This document shows, piece after piece, positions 49,150-62,493 of a DNA stretch of 64,000 bases. Positions within the stretch are counted from its first letter, which is position 1. Each line of letters opens with the position of its first letter. Source of the DNA: Candidatus Enterousia sp. (GTDB lineage Bacteria > Pseudomonadota > Alphaproteobacteria > Rs-D84); assembly GCA_045646625.1 (NCBI GenBank), contig JAZRLB010000007.1, positions 3,369 to 67,368 on the forward strand, in the 5' to 3' direction. The translations under genes were made by a program, and so were the position numbers. The notes under the pieces were generated by a model. That model was not told the DNA's origin. It did no database searches and saw nothing but the letters and a program-made list of their open reading frames with translations.

Positions 49150-49743
49150 TTATTTTCCTTTGCTGATTTCTTTTAATGCCATGGGGACCAGTTTGGATAC
49201 GTCCGCGGTTGGGTTCTGGTTGACCAGGTTTTGTGCCATTTCAATAATATCCAGTCTGCGATAGCCCAAGGATTCCAATGCCATCAATAAATCGGGCAGG
49301 GCAGATGATGCGCCCGATGCAATGTTTGTGTCTGGGGCAAACAGGGTTGCAGATATACCGCCGACTTTGTTTTTTAATTCAACAATAATCTTTTCTGCCA
49401 TTTTTTTGCCAACACCCGGGGCGGTCGCAATCGTTTTGGCGTCGTTTGTGGCAATCGCAGACATTAATGTGTCCGAATTTATTGTGCCAAGTATGGCCAA
49501 TGCAACCTTAGGACCCACACCAGACACGGCCGTTAACATGTTAAACAGGTTTTGTCCGTTCAGGGTCGTAAAGCCGAATAAGCGTATGGAATCTTCGCGA
49601 ACAACCGTTTCAATCCACAGTGCAACCGTTGATTTGTGGGTTAGGTATTCGGCGGTATAAACCTTGTATCCGACACCATTCACCAATAAAATAACAAAAC
49701 CGTCGCCGATATAGTCAACTATGCCTTGCAATTTGCCAATCAT
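49150..49743 (-). CDS. ruvA: Holliday junction branch migration protein RuvA
   Basis: MIGKL.G, GVGY, VRED..LFGF, V.GVGPK.AL, PGVGKK.A..I..ELK, AL.SLGY. Confidence 0.96.
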   Translation of the reverse strand: MIGKLQGIVDYIGDGFVILLVNGVGYKVYTAEYLTHKSTVALWIETVVREDSIRLFGFTTLNGQNLFNMLTAVSGVGPKVALAILGTINSDTLMSAIATNDAKTIATAPGVGKKMAEKIIVELKNKVGGISATLFAPDTNIASGASSALPDLLMALESLGYRRLDIIEMAQNLVNQNPTADVSKLVPMALKEISKGK

Positions 49744-49793
49744 TTGTTATCCTTTTGGGGTAATTTTAATCTAAATAAATAAAAAGGTCAAAT

Positions 49794-50510
49794 ATGAGTG
49801 GACACAGTAAATGGCATAACATCCAACATAAAAAAGGCGCAGCCGACGCAGCACGCAGTGGGTTGTTCACAAAATTGGCGCGTGAAATTACTATGGCGGC
49901 AAAATTGGGCGATAAAAATCCGGATAATAATCCTCGTTTGCGCTTGGCGATTTTAACCGCACGCAAGAATTCTATGCCAAATGATAATATCAAACGCGCA
50001 ATTGACAAGGCGTCAGGTGCAAATACGGAAAATTATGAAGCAGTGCGCTATGAAGGTTATGGTCCAGGTGCGGTGCCTGTTATTGTAGAGGCGTTGACCG
50101 ATAATCCACGTCGTACTGTGCCAGAAATTCGCAATATCTTTGGTAAAAATGGCGGAAATATGGGCGAAGAAGGCAGTGTTGTGTTTATGTTTACACGCGC
50201 GGGTCAGATTATGTATCCGGCATCCATCGGTAAAACCGAAGATGAAATGATGGAAATTATTATGGAAGCAAATGCGGATAATCTGGAAACATCCGAAGAA
50301 GGCTTTATCATCACAACAAAACCAGAAGATTTTATCACAGCCCAGAAATATCTGGCCGATAAATTGGGTGAGCCAGAACAGGCAGAGCTGACCTGGATTC
50401 CAAATATGCCAATGGATTTAGATGACGAGGCGTATGCCAAGTTGGAAAAGTTGGTTGATGCGCTGGATGCCAACGACGATGTGCAGAAGGTGTTTACCGC
50501 CGCAGCATAG
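49794..50510 (+). CDS. yebC: YebC/PmpR family protein
   Basis: MSGHSKW.NI.H.K, NPRLR, YEGYGP, TDN..RT, DDVQ.V. Confidence 0.97.
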   Translation: MSGHSKWHNIQHKKGAADAARSGLFTKLAREITMAAKLGDKNPDNNPRLRLAILTARKNSMPNDNIKRAIDKASGANTENYEAVRYEGYGPGAVPVIVEALTDNPRRTVPEIRNIFGKNGGNMGEEGSVVFMFTRAGQIMYPASIGKTEDEMMEIIMEANADNLETSEEGFIITTKPEDFITAQKYLADKLGEPEQAELTWIPNMPMDLDDEAYAKLEKLVDALDANDDVQKVFTAAA

Positions 50511-50695
50511 GCAAATATAATTCATCTAAAAAACAAAACCGATGACTCATGTAACGTCTGTACACTACGTCATCGGCTTTGTTTTTGTCTAAATCATATT
50601 TGCCTATGCTGTTTCAAGTGCTAGGGGATATGTAGCGTCTGTACACTATGGGGACGGCACTGTCTATATCTATACCATTATCTTTTATTTTTAGT
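50503..50695. repeat. Two ERIC/RPE-like units downstream of yebC
   Basis: Cores at 50546 and 50628; terminal IR CAGCATAGGCAAATAT/ATATTTGCCTATGCTG includes the yebC stop. Confidence 0.85.
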
Positions 50696-50745
50696 CTAAA
50701 AAAGATATCTTGATTTTTTTTGTGGTTGGTAATAATATTAGATTC

Positions 50746-50802
50746 ATGAAAATGTTTGGTTCTTTCTTTACTACAACAACTACAACCCCTTTGGGGGTGT
50801 AA
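50746..50802 (+). promoter_or_regulatory. thrS leader peptide MKMFGSFFTTTTTTPLGV*
   Basis: Six consecutive Thr codons upstream of thrS; TTGATT-17-TAATAT promoter immediately upstream. Confidence 0.85.
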
Positions 50803-50887
50803 TTTCTATTTGCGATAAATCGCACAATTTTTTAAAATTAAACAGTTAATCAGATATAAAAAAGTAAAATATAAAAAGGTTAGAATT

Positions 50888-52621
50888 ATGGCATATGATA
50901 TTGAATTAATGCGTCATTCATTAGCGCACGTTATGGCGGCGGCGGTAAAAAAACTGCACCCGGATGTTAAATTTGCGGGTGGGCCCGCAATTGAAAATGG
51001 GTTTTATTATGACTTTGATACAGAATATCGTTTTTCCGAAAATGATTTTGAAAAAATCGAAAAGGAAATGCGTGATTTGATTAAGTCTAATGGGCGTTTT
51101 GAACAGCGTAATGTGTCCCTGGATGAAGCAAAAGAAATCTTTGCAGATCAGCCATACAAAATGGAATGGTTGAATGAATATGATGCGGCTGGTGAAGCGC
51201 TGTCTGTCTATGCTTTCCGTGATTTTGTTGACCTGTGTCGTGGTCCACACGTTGAAAGTTCTAAGGATTTGCCGCGAGACAGTTTCAAAATTCGCAGTGT
51301 TGCAGGCGCATACTGGAAAGGGGATTCGAAAAATAAAATGTTGCAGCGTATCTATGTGGATGCGTTCGCAACTAAAGAAGAATTAGAACAGTTCTTGAAA
51401 ATGCAGGAAGAGGCTGCCGCACGAGATAATCGCAAATTGGGTAAAGATATGGATTTGTTCCATTTTGAACCAGAATATGCGCCGGGGTCTGTGTTCTGGC
51501 ACGACAAGGGATACAGAATGTATCGCAAGCTGATTGAATATGTGCGTCTGCGTCAGGAAATGGCGGGCTATCAGGAAATTTCAACACCTGCTGTTATGGA
51601 CAGGTGTTTGTGGGAAAGATCTGGTCACTGGGCAAAGTATGGCGAACATAACTATTCAGGTAAAACCCAGGATGGCAAAGTGTTCTGTATTAAGCCTATG
51701 TCGTGCCCAGGTGGGATGTTGGTGTTTGGGCACGGTCTGCGTTCTTATAAGGATTTGCCATTGTATATGGCTGAATTTGGTAAGGTTCATCGCTATGAAG
51801 CGGCCGGTGGTTTGTCTGGACTGATGCGTGTGCGTGAATTTACCCAGGACGATGCGCATATCTTTTGCACGGAAGAACAGTTGGAAGAAGAAGTTGTTAA
51901 GATTTTGCGTTTTATCAAAGATATTTATGGAAAATTCGGCTTTGATAAAATTACTATGAAATTGGCAACGCGTAAAGAATCAGAATTCCGTATTGGGTCT
52001 GACGAAATTTGGGACAAAGCCGAAGGCGCATTAAAGCACGCGCTGGATGCGAATGGTATTGAATACGAAATTGCCGAAGGTGATGCCGCGTTCTATGGTC
52101 CAAAGATTGATAACTATCTGCGTGATTCTATGGGACGCGTATGGCAATGCGGTACGGTGCAATTGGATATGAATTTGCCAGAACGTTTTGATTTGTCTTA
52201 TGTTGGCGAAGATGGTGAAAAGCATCGCCCGATTATGTTGCATCGCGCGATGTTGGGTTCGATTGAACGCTTTATGGGCGTATTGTTGGAATCAACAGGT
52301 GGTAATTTGCCGTTGTGGTTGAGTCCAGAACCGGTTGTTGTTGCGCCAATTTCACAAAAATACGCAGAATATGCGAATGAAATTGTGGCGGCTTTGCGAG
52401 CGTCGGGTATAAATGCACGGGCAGATTTGCGTGATGAAAAAGTAAACTATAAAATCCGCGAATTGTCTTTGGCAAAAACACCGATTATCGCGATTGTTGG
52501 AGAAAAAGAAATGGCAGAAAAAATGGTGACTCTGCGTCGTTTGGGTGTTGAAAAGCAGGAATCAATGCCAATGGCGGAATTTGTCGAAATGATGAAAGAT
52601 AGTGTCAAAATGCCGTTGTGA
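50888..52621 (+). CDS. thrS: Threonine--tRNA ligase lacking the N-terminal TGS domain
   Basis: RHSLAH, DLCRGPH, GAYW.G, KPM.CP, RVREFTQDD.H, AFYGPK, HRA..GS.ERF. Confidence 0.98.
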   Translation: MAYDIELMRHSLAHVMAAAVKKLHPDVKFAGGPAIENGFYYDFDTEYRFSENDFEKIEKEMRDLIKSNGRFEQRNVSLDEAKEIFADQPYKMEWLNEYDAAGEALSVYAFRDFVDLCRGPHVESSKDLPRDSFKIRSVAGAYWKGDSKNKMLQRIYVDAFATKEELEQFLKMQEEAAARDNRKLGKDMDLFHFEPEYAPGSVFWHDKGYRMYRKLIEYVRLRQEMAGYQEISTPAVMDRCLWERSGHWAKYGEHNYSGKTQDGKVFCIKPMSCPGGMLVFGHGLRSYKDLPLYMAEFGKVHRYEAAGGLSGLMRVREFTQDDAHIFCTEEQLEEEVVKILRFIKDIYGKFGFDKITMKLATRKESEFRIGSDEIWDKAEGALKHALDANGIEYEIAEGDAAFYGPKIDNYLRDSMGRVWQCGTVQLDMNLPERFDLSYVGEDGEKHRPIMLHRAMLGSIERFMGVLLESTGGNLPLWLSPEPVVVAPISQKYAEYANEIVAALRASGINARADLRDEKVNYKIRELSLAKTPIIAIVGEKEMAEKMVTLRRLGVEKQESMPMAEFVEMMKDSVKMPL

Positions 52622-52672
52622 TTTTGTTGGGGTGTGAAATTGCGCCCCAATAACAATTAAGGAGATGATAGA

Positions 52673-52816
52673 ATGAAAAAAAAATTGATGGTTATTGCGT
52701 TGCTGGTTGTGCCAGTTCTGGTGACGGGATGTGCAAAAAAGTGCGAGGTTGAACCAATTGTCGAACAAAATCATAAATTGATTGTGCCGCCAAATTTTGG
52801 AAATATGCCAAAGTAA
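52673..52816 (+). CDS. 47-aa small lipoprotein (MKKKLMVIALLVVPVLVTGCAKKCEVEPIVEQNHKLIVPPNFGNMPK)
   Basis: AAGGAG upstream, VTGC lipobox, LIVPP.F motif reminiscent of DUF3035. Confidence 0.7.
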   Translation: MKKKLMVIALLVVPVLVTGCAKKCEVEPIVEQNHKLIVPPNFGNMPK

Positions 52817-52893
52817 AAATTTATGCCAAAGCATTTTGTCTTTGGCTTTTTTTGTGATATAATGTTCACAATGAATAAGAGGGAGTTTTTATC

Positions 52894-53688
52894 ATGAACG
52901 ATGATAACAATTTGGATTTACTGGATTTAGATGACAACGGTGCAATGGACACTTTGCCAGAAGCGACGTCGTTCGCAGCACCAAGACCAAAAAAACCTTG
53001 GTTGTTGCTGAGTGTGGGATTGTTGGTAATCGTGTTGGCGACATATGTTATTATTCGTGCAATTGGTGATGATTCTGCGTCTTCGATAGAAGTGGATTTA
53101 GATGCACCGGTTGTTGTTGATGCAGGGGCAGGGCAACCAGTGCCAGTTGATATGAATGTTATGCCACCGGCACAACCTGCGCAGATTCAGCCGCAGCCAG
53201 TAGCACAGCCAGCGGCGCAACCGCAAGTTGTCGCACAGCCGGCGACACAGCCGCAAGTTGTCGCGCAGCCTGTGACGCAAACGGCGGGTGTGCCAGTGCG
53301 TGTTGTCGAAGAACGTCAAGAAGTAAAATTTAATCCTGCGGTGGAAGCAAAGCCTGCGGAAAAACCAAAAACTGTAACCGCAAAACCTGCAGCGAAAAAA
53401 ACGCCAACAAAGACAGCAAGTCAAACTGTGTCTAAGCCTGTGGTAGGTGCCTGGTATGTTCAGTTCGGTTCATACAGTACACGTGCGTTGGCGGAAAGCG
53501 CCCAGCGTCAGATTCAAAACGCACATAAGAGCTTGTTTGATGGACATCAGTTTGTTATTCTGGCAGCCCAGTTAAAGGATGGCAAGACGACATATCGTTT
53601 GCGTGTCGCGTTCAAGACGGCTGCAGATGCAAATGGTTTCTGTCGCAATGCTAAATCCGATGGGTTGGATTGCTATGTGGCGAAATAA
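52894..53688 (+). CDS. SPOR-domain (FtsN-like) membrane protein
   Basis: One TM, Q/P-rich repeats, WYVQFGSY....A, YRLRV.F.....A..FC. Confidence 0.88.
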   Translation: MNDDNNLDLLDLDDNGAMDTLPEATSFAAPRPKKPWLLLSVGLLVIVLATYVIIRAIGDDSASSIEVDLDAPVVVDAGAGQPVPVDMNVMPPAQPAQIQPQPVAQPAAQPQVVAQPATQPQVVAQPVTQTAGVPVRVVEERQEVKFNPAVEAKPAEKPKTVTAKPAAKKTPTKTASQTVSKPVVGAWYVQFGSYSTRALAESAQRQIQNAHKSLFDGHQFVILAAQLKDGKTTYRLRVAFKTAADANGFCRNAKSDGLDCYVAK

Positions 53689-54419: not shown

Positions 54420-54600
54420 GTTGTGTTTAATTGTGTTGACGTGATTGACGACCACCGAGCAGGCGAACACAGATAAAGTTATAAATCAGGGTGGCACCGC
54501 GCGGCCAAATTGACCTGCGCCCCTGAAAACTAACAATTAAGAAAGGGTGCCGAAATTCCAATTTATGTTTTTCGTGCCCGAATTTGAAAAAAAAGGGACC
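54420..54600 (+). promoter_or_regulatory. T-box-like leader of aspS
   Basis: TCAGGG-TGGCACC-GCGC...GCGC-CCCTGA antiterminator at 54486-54526; promoter TTGAAA-17-TAGAAT at 54385-54413. Confidence 0.8.
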
Positions 54601-54603
54601 AAA

Positions 54604-56373
54604 ATGTTATCTTTGAAATCAAAGTACAGAACCCATACTTGTGGTGAATTAAATACATCAAATGTGGGCAACCGTGTTGTTTTGTCGGGGTGGGTGCATC
54701 GTAAACGTGACCATGGCTCGTTGATGTTTGTAGACCTGCGTGATAATTATGGTATTACCCAGGTGGTTTTTGATGGTGGAAATGAAGCACTGGAAAAAGT
54801 GCGCCCAGAATCCGTTATTAAAGTTGTTGGCAATGTTGTCGCACGTGATGCGAATGCTGTTAATGATAAAATTCCAACTGGTGGTATCGAAATTCAGGCG
54901 GAATCTTTTGAAGTTTTAACAAATGCAGATGTGCTGCCTTTCCAGGTGTTCGGCGATGATGATTCTGTGGCCGAGGATTTGCGTTTGAAATATCGCTATA
55001 TTGATTTGAGACGCGAAAGTCTGCACAAGAATATTTTGTTCCGTAATCGCGTTATGAAATTTCTGCGCGATAAAATGTGGGATATGGGATTTTCAGAATT
55101 CCAGACACCAATTTTGACTGCGTCATCACCAGAAGGTGCGCGTGACTTTATCGTGCCAAGTCGTAATCATCACGGTATGTTCTATGCCTTGCCACAGGCG
55201 CCACAGCAGTTTAAGCAGTTTATTCAGATTTCTGGGTTTGATAGATATTTCCAGATTGCGCCTTGTTTCCGTGACGAAGATTTGCGTGCGGACAGATTGT
55301 TAGAATTCTATCAGTTGGATTTGGAAATGTCGTTTGTGGACCTGCCAGATATTCAGGCGGTGGGTAATAAATTAATGCCAGAAATGATTCGCGAATTTGT
55401 GCCAGGTGCAAAAATATGCGAAGAAATTCCACATATTCCATTCGATGAAGCAATGCTGAAATATGGTTCGGATAAACCAGATTTGCGTAATCCGATTATC
55501 ATTTCTGATGTGACTGAAATTTTCCGTGGGTCTGATTTTGGTATCTTTGCGAATGCGGTTGAAAATGGCAGCGTCGTTCGCGCAATTCCGGCACCAAATT
55601 CGGCGGATAAACCACGTTCTTGGTTTGATAAACTGGGGGAATTTGCAGTCAAAGAATTAGGACTGGGTGGTTTGGGATACATCGTGTTTGCAGATGAGGC
55701 CAAAGGACCTGTTGCAAAAAAATTGGATTCGGAACATATCGCAAAGTTGCGTGAAATCGCAGGTGATAATTCATCATTGTTCTTTGTTTGTGACGAAGTA
55801 AATGCCGCCGCCAAGGCAGCTGGTAAATTGCGTAACAAGTTGGGTGATGATTTAGGGTTGATTGATCCAAAGGAATTCCGTTTCTGTTGGATAGAAGAAT
55901 TTCCGTTCTTTGAAGCGGACGAAGAATCACCAACAGGTATCGCGTTTACGCATAATCCGTTCTCGTTCCCGATGGCAACGTTGGAAGAACTGAATACTAA
56001 AAATCCATTGGAAATCAAAGCGGCGCAGTTCGATATGGTGTTGAATGGCGCAGAAATCTGCAGTGGTGGTTTGCGCAACTTTAACCCAGAAGTTATGTTG
56101 AAATGCTTTGATATCACCGGGTACAGTGAAGAAGTTGTAAAAGAAAAATTTGGTGGTATGTATACTGCATTCCAATATGGTGCGCCACCACACGGTGGTT
56201 GTGCGTTTGGGTTGGATCGACTGGTTCAGATTATGTTGGATGAACCAAACCTGCGCCAGGTTGTGATATTCCCAACGAATCAGCGTGGTCAGGACTTGAT
56301 GATGGGGGCGCCGACAACTGTGACTGAAAAACAGTTGCGCGAAGTACACATTCAGGTGCGCAAGAAAAACTAA
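54604..56373 (+). CDS. aspS: Aspartate--tRNA ligase, probably non-discriminating
   Basis: YRTHTCGEL, RDHG (His of ND-AspRS), PEGARDF, LPQAPQQFKQ, GAPPHGG.A.GLDR. Confidence 0.98.
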   Translation: MLSLKSKYRTHTCGELNTSNVGNRVVLSGWVHRKRDHGSLMFVDLRDNYGITQVVFDGGNEALEKVRPESVIKVVGNVVARDANAVNDKIPTGGIEIQAESFEVLTNADVLPFQVFGDDDSVAEDLRLKYRYIDLRRESLHKNILFRNRVMKFLRDKMWDMGFSEFQTPILTASSPEGARDFIVPSRNHHGMFYALPQAPQQFKQFIQISGFDRYFQIAPCFRDEDLRADRLLEFYQLDLEMSFVDLPDIQAVGNKLMPEMIREFVPGAKICEEIPHIPFDEAMLKYGSDKPDLRNPIIISDVTEIFRGSDFGIFANAVENGSVVRAIPAPNSADKPRSWFDKLGEFAVKELGLGGLGYIVFADEAKGPVAKKLDSEHIAKLREIAGDNSSLFFVCDEVNAAAKAAGKLRNKLGDDLGLIDPKEFRFCWIEEFPFFEADEESPTGIAFTHNPFSFPMATLEELNTKNPLEIKAAQFDMVLNGAEICSGGLRNFNPEVMLKCFDITGYSEEVVKEKFGGMYTAFQYGAPPHGGCAFGLDRLVQIMLDEPNLRQVVIFPTNQRGQDLMMGAPTTVTEKQLREVHIQVRKKN

Positions 56374-61081: not shown

Positions 61082-62359
61082 TTAGTGTTTCCCGCCGATT
61101 TTTGTTCGATTGCCCATTAATGGCTGTAATTTCTTTGGAATATTTACCGAGCCGTCTGGGTTTTGGTGGTTTTCAATTACAGGCACAATTGCGCGGGGCA
61201 GGGCAATACCTGTGTTATTTAATGTTGCACAGAACTGTAATGTGCCGTCTGTGGCGCGGTAACGGGTGTTCGTACGACGTGCTTGGAATTGACCAATCGA
61301 TGAACAAGACCCCAGTTCGCGATATGTGCCTTCGCTTGGGAACCAGGCTTCGACATCGTGCATTTTTACTTTGTTAAAACCCATGTCGCCCGTGCAGGCT
61401 GCAATGACACGGTATGGTAATTCTAAATCTTCCATAATTTCGCACAGGTTGTTCAATAAATGTTCGTGCATTTCGTCCGACTGTTCAGGTGTGCAATAGA
61501 TGTATTGTTCAACCTTGTTAAATTGATGTATACGCACGATTCCGCGGGTGTCACGCCCTGCCGCCCCAGCTTCTTTGCGGAAACAAGGTGAATAGCCTGC
61601 GTATTTAATTGGCAAATCTTTTTCATTCAAAACTTCATCAGAATGTAAAGAATTCAAAACGATTTCTGCTGTCCCTGCCAAACATCTATCTGTATCAGTC
61701 AACATGAACACATCATTGTTCATGACCGACAAATCCGACCCCATAAAGTGCCCCGCATTAAAGATTGTTTGTGGTTTTGTAATTGCTGGACAGTTCACAA
61801 ATGTAAAGCCCTTGCTGATTAATTTCTGTAACACATATGTCTGAATTGCCAATTCTAATTCGGCAGCTTCACCAAACAAAGCGTATGTACGCGCACCACA
61901 AATTGATGCAATTTTATCATTCTTCCACCAACCATTCATTTCCAACAATTCCCATTGTGGACGTGGTGTAAAGTCAAATTCACGTGGTGTGCCAACGCGC
62001 CGCACCTCTACATTTTCTGTATCATCCTTGCCAACTGGTGCATCTGCAGATGGCACCTGCGGTACACGCAACAGCAAATCATGCAACAAATCTTCCTTTT
62101 CGGCCAACTCTGCCAATTCCGCAGCAATTTCAGCTGCAATTTCTTTACTGCGCGCAATCAATGGCGCTTTGTCTGTTGCAGTTGGTATTTCCCGTGTGAT
62201 TTTATTTTTCTCAGCGGTCTTGGATTGTGTAACCGTTTTCAATTCACGCACACGCACATCCAAAGACAGAATTTCATCAACCTTGTCTTCATAGCCCTTT
62301 AATTCACATGCCTTTTTAACAGCATCTGGATTTTCACGAATAAATTTCATATCCAACAT
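61082..62359 (-). CDS. serS: Serine--tRNA ligase
   Basis: MLD.K.IR, LAGTAE, CFRKEAG.AGRDTRG..R.HQF.KVE, E..SCS, TLN.T. Confidence 0.97.
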   Translation of the reverse strand: MLDMKFIRENPDAVKKACELKGYEDKVDEILSLDVRVRELKTVTQSKTAEKNKITREIPTATDKAPLIARSKEIAAEIAAELAELAEKEDLLHDLLLRVPQVPSADAPVGKDDTENVEVRRVGTPREFDFTPRPQWELLEMNGWWKNDKIASICGARTYALFGEAAELELAIQTYVLQKLISKGFTFVNCPAITKPQTIFNAGHFMGSDLSVMNNDVFMLTDTDRCLAGTAEIVLNSLHSDEVLNEKDLPIKYAGYSPCFRKEAGAAGRDTRGIVRIHQFNKVEQYIYCTPEQSDEMHEHLLNNLCEIMEDLELPYRVIAACTGDMGFNKVKMHDVEAWFPSEGTYRELGSCSSIGQFQARRTNTRYRATDGTLQFCATLNNTGIALPRAIVPVIENHQNPDGSVNIPKKLQPLMGNRTKIGGKH

Positions 62360-62439: not shown

Positions 62440-62493
62440 CTATACCCCCAACGGGGATGAAGAACGACTAAAAAACACAAATTTCATATTCAT
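62440..62493 (-). promoter_or_regulatory. serS leader peptide MNMKFVFFSRSSSPLGV*
   Basis: Ser codons AGT, TCT, TCA, TCC clustered upstream of serS; TTGAAT-17-TATAAT promoter 9 nt before the ATG. Confidence 0.8.

Follow-up and report, generated by a model that had tools for sequence, protein, structure and literature searches.

A run of threonine codons before thrS in Candidatus Enterousia and its relatives, a probable sensor of charged tRNA-Thr

Two classical routes are known by which thrS, the gene for threonine--tRNA ligase (ThrRS), senses tRNA-Thr, namely the tRNA-mimic translational operator of E. coli and the T-boxes of Firmicutes, and at another synthetase operon of E. coli, pheST, attenuation by the leader peptide PheM is established. 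Here we describe a leader located upstream of thrS in a stretch of 64,000 nucleotides (nt) from Candidatus Enterousia sp. (contig JAZRLB010000007.1 of assembly GCA_045646625.1; the whole stretch is called the window, and positions are counted from its first letter), in which a short upstream open reading frame (uORF) with six consecutive Thr codons enters a GC-rich hairpin, hairpin 1, and is followed by a second promoter-like element, P2, that encloses a second hairpin, hairpin 2. The comparative evidence supports well the interpretation of this element as a leader peptide sensing Thr-tRNA, whereas it does not support the presumed terminator arrangement; the same DNA had been the subject of a preliminary description. 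Leader-peptide control of synthetase genes is a known kind of regulation, from whose textbook form the present case departs in the lack of a conserved antiterminator, the predicted second promoter and the covarying hairpin.

With the E. coli pheM/pheST system the leader shares a peptide rich in the cognate amino acid, the proposed stalling of the ribosome and the association with a synthetase gene; however, pheST control relies on a competing terminator and antiterminator and on a leader led by a Shine-Dalgarno sequence, whereas the frame considered here is nearly leaderless, shows no conserved alternative pairing and has a second predicted promoter downstream. The thrL leader of E. coli (Thr_leader of Rfam, RF00506) likewise has Thr codons in series within a short ORF that precedes a terminator, but it controls the genes of Thr biosynthesis and not thrS, its peptide is rich in Thr and Ile, and it folds into classical alternative hairpins. 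As far as the tRNA-mimic operator and the T-boxes are concerned, a cmscan of positions 49500-53500 against Rfam at E <= 10 gave zero matches on 50700-50890, Thr_leader and T-box (RF00230) included, and five chance-level matches only, all of them outside the leader; moreover, the loops of the leader hairpins vary freely and present no conserved anticodon-like sequence.

In Streptomyces lividans, an RNA-seq-based reannotation reported a leaderless thrL upstream of thrS (PMC8079986). According to the accessible text of that report, thrL resembles the leader of the window in being a leaderless short ORF before thrS in which Pro-Gly comes after the Thr codons (MKRVRPFLETTPGFVPAR), in having one hairpin whose U-tract is not clear, so that the mode of termination is called unclear, and in having sister leaders at alaS, leuS and trpS. 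The two systems differ in the number of Thr codons (two there, four to eight here) and in phylum; the same text contains no analysis of conservation and no description of an internal second promoter or of a covarying second hairpin, and the likeness is one of description. A further parallel is offered by the mycobacterial polycysteine "ribulon", where, in the accessible part of the preprint (bioRxiv 10.1101/834739), leaderless short ORFs (sORFs) with runs of one codon occur at several loci and are coordinated by ribosome pausing, with no classical terminator/antiterminator pair. Different from the present case, the output of the ribulon is sequestration of the ribosome-binding site, which our folding analysis does not support for thrS, and its targets are genes of cysteine metabolism and not synthetases. 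Leaders rich in His have been predicted before hisS paralogues in bacilli (PMC2965389, accessible text). In our literature search, which covered openly accessible papers, no description of such leaders was found for Enterousia, for the order Rs-D84 or for other Alphaproteobacteria.

The preliminary description, made from the letters of the window, had reported the uORF, its run of six Thr codons, a spacing of 7 nt between a -10 box and the start codon, and an overlapping ACCCC-TTTG-GGGGT hairpin, and all these elements are in place (Table 1). The start codon at 50746 follows the -10 box of the predicted promoter P1 at that distance and is not preceded by a Shine-Dalgarno sequence, while the end of the uORF lies 85 nt from the start of thrS. 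In particular, the 5' arm of hairpin 1 opens with the last Thr codon, ACC, and the stop codon of the uORF falls 1 nt 3' of the hairpin. The pattern (ACN)6 occurs only once on the two strands of the 956,149-base genome, precisely at the uORF, against a naive expectation of 0.065, which indicates that the Thr run is more than a chance occurrence. Folded as a whole, the 145-nt leader shows nothing unusual in its energy (z = -1.0); the structural signal resides in the two local hairpins and in the codons, rather than in the overall fold of the leader.

In relatives, the Thr run is kept upstream of thrS, a point on which the preliminary description had made its reading depend. In a first set, 30 thrS loci were retrieved out of 41 related genomes, and 29 of them were scored, one locus lacking upstream sequence. 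A Thr-run uORF starting with ATG, together with a CCCC-N(3-6)-GGGG hairpin located 83 to 126 nt before thrS, was present in 26 of the 29, that is, in all 23 loci of the genus and in three of the six loci from other families. The second set comprised 80 named loci, four of which had too little upstream sequence, and here the element was found in 52 of 53 Enterousia-like loci (51 by pattern and one, L045 with MLLKKIFFTTLTCTTPAGV, by eye) and in none of 23 loci of distant Alphaproteobacteria (Pelagibacteraceae and others, with a ThrRS about 50% identical). Pooling both sets gave 77 leaders, corresponding to 75 distinct sequences. Furthermore, of ten upstream regions added from further families of Rs-D84, two carry the leader (MLIRKILFTTFTTTTPLGY and MLILDKILFTSTTTPMGL, both from one family whose ThrRS keeps the TGS domain), seven are devoid of it and one ends at the end of its contig.

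A strict pattern scan was extended to 401 genomes of the class, where a control with the reversed pattern matched about equally often. Thirteen genomes matched, and in five of them tblastn placed the match just upstream of thrS: these are the genome of the window, two genomes of the genus and two labelled only "same class" (G374 and G118, with a ThrRS about 61% identical). One genome of the order, G029, presents a similar Thr-run frame at the end of a contig, where the linkage to thrS is not checkable. Seven of the 13 matches were discarded as chance occurrences, lying inside long GC-rich frames or away from thrS, and the use of the scan was limited to singling out the two "same class" leaders. 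Taken over all sets, the distribution points to a Thr leader of old origin and wide occurrence within this part of the Alphaproteobacteria, which appears to have been lost, or never to have been present, in some lines.

The comparison of the leaders also revealed a clear coding signature. Homologous uORFs occur in all 75 distinct leaders, with a length of 15 to 26 codons (18 in 34 of the 75) and four to eight Thr residues, and in every one of them the ATG, the frame and a stop codon in or just after the hairpin are kept. When seven codons of the run were aligned, ending in a fixed ACC, the entropy at codon positions 1 and 2 ranged from 0 to 0.87 in the last six; the seventh codon of the aligned run is mostly Phe and shows a higher entropy at these positions. 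At codon position 3, by contrast, the entropy extends from 0, at the fixed ACC, up to 1.74. All four Thr codons are used, and the occasional substitutes (I, N, V, L, A and F) stay in frame. Since the first two positions are nearly fixed and the third is variable, the uORF is under coding constraint as a series of Thr codons. Leaving out the fixed final ACC, the run is made up of ACA (58.5%), ACU (29.7%), ACG (6.7%) and ACC (5.0%), compared to 44.9, 13.7, 20.5 and 21.0%, respectively, for the Thr codons of the genome.

The last Thr codon, ACC, is invariant and is part of the stem of hairpin 1, which is itself invariant (the ACAACCCC and GGGG columns), only the loop being variable; the distance from the ATG to the ACC codon is 39 to 48 nt in 72 of the 75 leaders. 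The peptide following the run (PLGV, PAGV, PFGVR and so on) is dictated by the CCCC and GGGG of the stem, and in some distant relatives the stop codon falls within the loop of hairpin 1, so that the peptide ends in ...TTTP*. What is conserved after the Thr run is the hairpin and not the tail of the peptide. Upstream, 66 of the 75 distinct leaders have a P1-like sigma-70 match (at least 8 of 12 positions) at the corresponding position, the spacer measuring 17 nt in 62 of them, and most of the remaining nine leaders reflect the choice of an upstream in-frame ATG. The distance between the end of the -10 box and the ATG is 7 nt in 31 leaders, 9 nt in 17, 10 nt in 10 and 6 nt in 6, lying between 6 and 10 nt in 65 of the 66. 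The uORF transcript would then begin at or near the ATG, with a leaderless start.

A scan of the same genome for short upstream frames with amino acid runs, in which the identities of the genes were confirmed with NCBIfam, identified cognate-codon uORFs before thrS, both copies of serS, hisS, cysS, trpS and ileS. Those of the two serS copies, MKFVFFSRSSSPLGV and MKKAFVFFSSSSSPLGE, share with the thrS leader its U-rich start, its (T/A)CCCC..GGGG hairpin and its frame. In the serS leader of the window, a predicted promoter lies 9 nt upstream, the Ser codons enter a TCCCC-GTTG-GGGG hairpin and the stop codon comes directly after it, followed by TTTTTGCG. The second serS copy, with the leader MKKAFVFFSSSSSPLGE*, is located at a contig end (G000 C19:109455-110393) and is 87% identical over 306 residues. 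Reading the sequences of the relatives, we found a Ser-run frame with its hairpin before serS in 10 of 29 loci, of which three belong to other families; elsewhere, serS often comes directly after another gene. Within the genus, the frame is kept at 12 of 12 hisS loci, 10 of 11 cysS loci and 4 of 12 trpS loci, while the ileS uORF was found in the genome of the window only. A metG frame is a possible additional candidate (Table 1), and the start is near-leaderless in this frame as it is in the hisS, trpS, cysS and ileS uORFs. For the other eleven synthetase genes found in this genome, the upstream sequence showed no evident cognate-codon frame. As a separate observation, a possible GTG-started frame, MIDDHRAGEHR*, with two Asp codons, lies about 100 nt before an aspS-like ORF (54547-56373, tRNA-synt_2, AspRS-like) and is followed by a GC-rich structured stretch.

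Table 1. Position of the features of the thrS leader and of the cognate-codon uORFs at other synthetase genes (window positions, or genome and contig handle where the feature lies elsewhere in the same genome)
Feature	Position	Strand	Description
Predicted promoter P1 of the leader	50710..50738	+	-35 TTGATT (50710-50715), 17-nt spacer, -10 TAATAT (50733-50738); activity predicted
Near-leaderless uORF	50746..50802	+	18 codons and TAA (50800-50802), encodes MKMFGSFFTTTTTTPLGV*; sequence reading and homologous uORFs
Six Thr codons, proposed sensing codons	50770..50787	+	ACT ACA ACA ACT ACA ACC
Hairpin 1	50785..50798	+	ACCCC-TTTG-GGGGT; -7.9 kcal/mol (mean -8.0 over 75 leaders)
T-rich linker	50799..50810	+	GTAATTTCTATT; sub-canonical U-tract after hairpin 1, runs into the -35 box of P2
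Promoter-like P2	50810..50838	+	-35 TTGCGA, 17-nt spacer, -10 TAAAAT; activity predicted
Hairpin 2	50811..50824	+	TGCGATAAATCGCA (TGCGA-TAAA-TCGCA), inside the -35 box and spacer of P2; -4.3 kcal/mol
A-rich 5' untranslated region of thrS	50839..50887	+	Shine-Dalgarno AAGG at 50876-50879; sequence and alignment
thrS, threonine--tRNA ligase	50888..52621	+	577 amino acids; TIGR00418, 686 bits (cut-off 383.65)
serS sister uORF	62440-62493	-	M(NM)KFVFFSRSSSPLGV*; serS at 61082-62359
hisS uORF	G000 C2:63643-63702 (approximate)		...VFHHARAGEY; His codons abut a CGCCC..GGGCG hairpin
trpS uORF	G000 C15:46581-46590 region (approximate)		...SCWRIAA; Trp codon in the hairpin arm
cysS uORF	G000 C15:52003-52042 (approximate)		MTIRFINFYCCR, then a terminator
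ileS uORF	G000 C8:9930-9962 (approximate)		MKQTTIIIIK, then a strong terminator
metG candidate uORF	G000 C13 upstream of 31598		MRMQKKS, then a strong terminator; possible

The run always matches the enzyme encoded downstream, which constitutes the strongest argument for a sensor of the cognate tRNA, and the sharing of one design by several loci, a trait of the "ribulon" sets of leaderless sensory sORFs, is found here as well. Given the sister uORFs with the cognate codons of serS, hisS, cysS, trpS and ileS, a sensor of charged tRNA is by far the best reading of the uORF, and we consider it very probable that the frame controls thrS in this capacity. What the compared sequences show is that the anatomy is conserved, that the Thr codons are under coding constraint and that the design recurs, with other cognate codons, at further synthetase genes. 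The accessible text of a 2025 study places Enterousia in the GTDB order Rs-D84, whose genomes measure less than about 1 Mb and lack pathways for the synthesis of amino acids (PMC12306168), so that the synthetase genes would be what remains to be regulated.

Downstream of the uORF lies P2. Its signature, a TTGNNN hexamer followed by a TATAAT-like hexamer, occurs in 73 of 73 leaders, with a spacing of 17 nt in most (61 leaders) and of 16 or 18 nt in the others (10 and 2 leaders, respectively), and some of the weaker -10 hexamers carry a TG extension. The spacing is maintained although the loop of the enclosed hairpin 2 varies from 4 to 9 nt, which marks this region as a likely second promoter of the sigma-70 type. 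The stem of hairpin 2, of at least 4 bp, begins at the G of TTG in 65 of the 73 leaders, and its two arms covary: GCGG/CCGC was found in 28 leaders, GCGC/GCGC in 12, GCAC/GTGC in 8, GCGA/TCGC in 6, GTGC/GCAC in 2 and GCGT/ACGC in 2, in addition to others. Both the half-sites and their spacing being variable, hairpin 2 is better understood as an RNA hairpin than as the operator of a protein. Its base lies 7 to 11 nt 3' of the stop codon in 68 of 71 leaders, approximately the distance to which a terminating ribosome would be expected to reach at its front.

The preliminary description had noted this second hairpin before a run of T. The hairpin and its T6 run (50828-50833) are indeed present in the window; however, the T run is confined to the window and its close relatives, and what is conserved at this place is the promoter-like signature of P2. 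The idea that a ribosome placed on the Thr run displaces hairpin 2 was rejected, as the predicted effect was inconsistent: the mean predicted formation of hairpin 2 was 0.69 with the ribosome on the Thr run and 0.61 with the ribosome at the stop codon (n = 71, the mask at the stop codon partly overlapping hairpin 2). With the ribosome on the Thr run, the value was reduced by more than 0.2 in 14 of the 71 leaders, while 25 showed an increase of more than 0.2.

It is possible to hypothesize a complete mechanism in which the leader acts in cis, before thrS, as a ribosome-based sensor of charged tRNA-Thr, with termination at hairpin 1 gating the read-through from P1. We regard this explanation as a whole as evenly balanced between right and wrong, and we lean slightly towards doubt for its output taken separately, namely that termination at hairpin 1 is regulated and has the expected sign. 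According to this hypothesis, P1 would yield an RNA starting at the AUG of the 18-codon frame or within 3 nt of it, and the ribosome translating the frame would decode six consecutive Thr codons, the last being the first triplet of hairpin 1, which would represent a GC stem of the terminator type with a deliberately weak U-tract. When Thr-tRNA is scarce, the ribosome would dwell on the last four Thr codons, its mRNA channel occupied by the 5' arm of hairpin 1; RNA polymerase would then escape the action of the hairpin, and the transcripts from P1 would pass the P2 region into thrS, adding to a basal transcription from P2. When Thr-tRNA is plentiful, the frame would be vacated, hairpin 1 would form and the transcripts from P1 would stop before P2. 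Predicted components of this scheme are the two promoters, the leaderless translation, the effect of hairpin 1 (be it termination or pausing) and the sign of the response.

Several observations weigh against the scheme just outlined. The number of T residues in the 8 nt following the G-run of hairpin 1 is between 2 and 5 in 75 of 75 leaders and never reaches 6, compared to 221 of the 852 genes of the genome in which a GC hairpin is followed by at least six T within 8 nt. The stem of hairpin 1 is of the type found in the intrinsic terminators of this genome, but with a consistently weaker U-tract, and hairpin 1 may serve for pausing or may terminate inefficiently. The ribosome-stalling attenuation proposed in the preliminary description is supported in its sensor part, by the conserved Thr codons and the cognate sister uORFs, and is not supported as regards the T run after hairpin 2 and an antiterminator, neither of which is conserved. 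In fact, of the features of a classical attenuator, a leader ORF enriched in cognate codons is present, with substitutions of a codon-like kind and a predicted translation, whereas mutually exclusive antiterminator pairing is missing: a scan of the 73 aligned leaders for a conserved alternative helix returned only hairpin 1 and weak G-U/A-U pairings. The covarying hairpin 2 finds no explanation in the scheme, and the position of P2 between the leader and thrS means that much of the transcription of thrS may bypass the leader altogether. Moreover, one Enterousia-like locus, L084, has a plain promoter only in place of the leader, and several other families of Rs-D84 have a thrS that is not preceded by it.

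Transcript data are of little help in this respect. The single run from an RNA library (a metatranscriptome) among 23 public runs provided a 293-nt contig of a relative (23 differences), which covers 50710-50988 and spans from the -35 box of P1, upstream of which it begins, through the leader into thrS; this contig may derive from DNA, and contigs show neither starts nor ends, so that it is compatible with read-through and proves nothing. RNA coverage reported for this region does not extend upstream of 50705, which is no proof either. A steric argument has to be added to the points against termination gated by a stalled ribosome: with the polymerase at the U-tract (about nt 61), the P site of the ribosome would be at about nt 35 or before. 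A fast ribosome tightly coupled to the polymerase would also be on the Thr run, masking hairpin 1, and could not get to the stop codon and leave before the polymerase moves on; direct masking alone would therefore favour read-through under fast decoding, in the manner of pyrBI, and such a sign makes little biological sense for leaders specific to a cognate amino acid.

A broader interpretation, which we consider tentative and less likely than not, is that Enterousia and its kin possess a portable and re-codable stall-sensor cassette, retargeted between synthetase genes (Thr and Ser, and more loosely His and Trp), in which no antiterminator is used and the ribosome on the mini-gene, in a way so far undescribed, gates the polymerase right where the downstream promoter begins. 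Its parts would be a leaderless start, about eight U-rich codons, a cognate run whose last triplet opens a GC hairpin, the stop codon, a weak U-tract and the promoter of the gene itself, with a covarying hairpin in the spacer. The output of such a cassette could be termination, pausing over the -35 box, a hand-over to P2 or access for Rho.

Less probable are the explanations that assign a different role to the same parts. The pyrBI leader of E. coli presents a single terminator hairpin that is blocked directly by the translating ribosome, with no antiterminator, and in these two traits it resembles the thrS leader. It is therefore conceivable, even if we hold it to be unlikely, that hairpin 1 ends the transcripts from P1 unless a ribosome closely trails the polymerase, so that fast decoding of the Thr codons would lead to read-through and slow decoding to formation of the hairpin, with an effect on thrS that is either feed-forward or exerted via the relief of interference with P2. 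The predicted geometry agrees with this possibility, in that a polymerase at the U-tract would leave the A site of a collided ribosome on Thr codons 4 to 5, and so does the position of the terminator-type hairpin 1, which abuts the -35 box of P2, as expected if P1 and P2 interact; the absence of a conserved antiterminator and the finding, in the accessible text of PMC10135430, that a trailing ribosome prevents pausing and termination speak for it as well, and the latter counts equally against read-through caused by stalling. However, at pyrBI the signal is the speed of the polymerase (the UTP level) and not that of decoding, and read-through needs tight coupling, a sign that is unexpected here. 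The cognate codons at six or more synthetase genes point instead to a specific feedback, and the opposite sign would amount to a positive feedback on a shortage of the enzyme, hard to rationalise, all the more so as the read-through transcripts still carry thrS.

An equally improbable alternative places the decision with Rho, as known for the tna operon, where a leader peptide gates this factor. The vacated uORF would let Rho load on a G-poor, pyrimidine-rich RNA, while a ribosome stalled on the Thr codons would cover the site, and the polymerase would perhaps be stopped while pausing after hairpin 2. Rho is encoded in the genome, the uORF from nt 10 to the hairpin contains 23.6% C and 6.9% G, the expected sign is obtained with no need of an antiterminator, and the covarying hairpin 2 would acquire a role as a pause signal. 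On the other hand, the candidate loading site is short (about 30 to 40 nt), ACC is depleted and not enriched in the run, the leaders of hisS, trpS and cysS are not C-rich, and the invariant hairpin 1 would be left with no role.

We assign a slightly lower probability still to a post-transcriptional control, in which the stalled ribosome would free the ribosome-binding site of thrS from the U-rich leader (in cis, or in trans via the terminated leader RNA), or would shield the 5' end and stabilise the mRNA. Such outputs have precedents, given that the mycobacterial polycysteine leaderless sORFs act in the former way (bioRxiv 10.1101/834739) and the Sinorhizobium rnTrpL acts in trans (PMC6614838), according to the accessible portions of both sources. 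In the window, minimum free energy folds pair the U-rich codons 4 to 8 with the Shine-Dalgarno region of thrS, as happens for the hisS and trpS leaders of the same genome, and masking the run raises the predicted accessibility of the Shine-Dalgarno sequence from 0.44 to 0.65 for thrS and from 0.07 to 0.34 for hisS. However, in partition-function folds of 74 leaders, computed with and without a ribosome mask and compared with shuffled leaders, the mean accessibility was 0.52 unmasked, 0.54 masked and 0.40 for the shuffled leader, the native value being lower than the shuffled one in 18 of the 74 only. The duplex between leader and cognate start region had a mean energy of -8.47 kcal/mol, against -8.40 kcal/mol for non-cognate ones, and was the better of the two in 38 of 75 cases; for the leader of the window, the start region of its own thrS falls at the 25th percentile among 855 such regions. 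Furthermore, the serS leaders are unchanged on masking, and transcripts from P2 would not contain the leader. Sequestration of the ribosome-binding site in the thrS leaders, whether in cis or in trans, is therefore not supported, with no excess pairing over the shuffled or non-cognate controls.

That the uORF is an independent mini-gene for a small hydrophobic peptide or a small RNA with no influence on thrS, as its own predicted promoter and terminator-like hairpin and the promoter-like P2 of thrS might suggest, is very improbable in view of the linkage to thrS kept across families, of the Ser, His, Cys, Trp and Ile cassettes linked to the matching synthetase genes, and of a peptide that is dictated by the hairpin after the run and shortened where the stop codon lies in the loop.

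The gene served by the leader encodes a ThrRS with an editing domain (tRNA_SAD), a catalytic domain and an anticodon-binding domain, in which the N-terminal TGS domain is absent. Throughout the genus ThrRS is devoid of the TGS domain and retains tRNA_SAD, whereas other families of Rs-D84 and more distant Alphaproteobacteria have the TGS extension; the Thr leader was found with both forms of the enzyme. Two members of the genus possess a second, shorter ThrRS-like frame (G007:C2:423-1652 and G012:C37:3309-4535) of about 435 residues, which is 40% identical over residues 174-574 and corresponds to a catalytic core without the editing domain. The assembly measures 0.96 Mb in 20 contigs, with 43% G+C, and contains tRNA-Thr genes with the anticodons GGU, CGU and UGU. 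Candidatus Enterousia is listed in the NCBI taxonomy as Alphaproteobacteria incertae sedis, and the DNA sequencing runs containing the stretch are labelled as bovine or gut metagenomes.

On the upstream side, a gene of the YebC/TACO1 family (49794-50510) is followed, just at its 3' end, by a long imperfect palindrome (50503-50611) with outer arms of 30 nt (83% complementary) and inner arms of 18 nt (94%), flanked by A and T runs. This palindrome is probably a bidirectional terminator, and it is the source of weak microRNA-like Rfam matches. Between the yebC terminator and P1 there is also a direct repeat of 49 nt (50549-50597 and 50630-50678, 73% identical), whose core TGTA(A/G)CGTCTGTACACTA is nearly exact in both copies.

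If the proposed sensing is correct, the leader would represent a third form of thrS control, based on a leader peptide, beside the operator of E. coli and the T-boxes of Firmicutes, and this form would be kept across an alphaproteobacterial order of uncultured gut bacteria whose genomes are reduced and which are unable to make amino acids. The interest of the finding lies in the range of synthetase genes concerned in so reduced a genome, in the apparent modular retargeting between Thr and Ser, and in an output that the textbook model leaves unexplained. In particular, the combination of P2 and a covarying hairpin with no antiterminator would offer a clean test case for the control of transcription by a stalled ribosome in which no competing RNA folds take part. 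Gene callers overlook mini-genes of this kind, whose presence may flag regulated synthetase genes in metagenome-assembled genomes. For the organisms themselves, the cognate mini-genes before at least six synthetase genes suggest that the capacity for tRNA charging may be tuned mainly via ribosome pausing.

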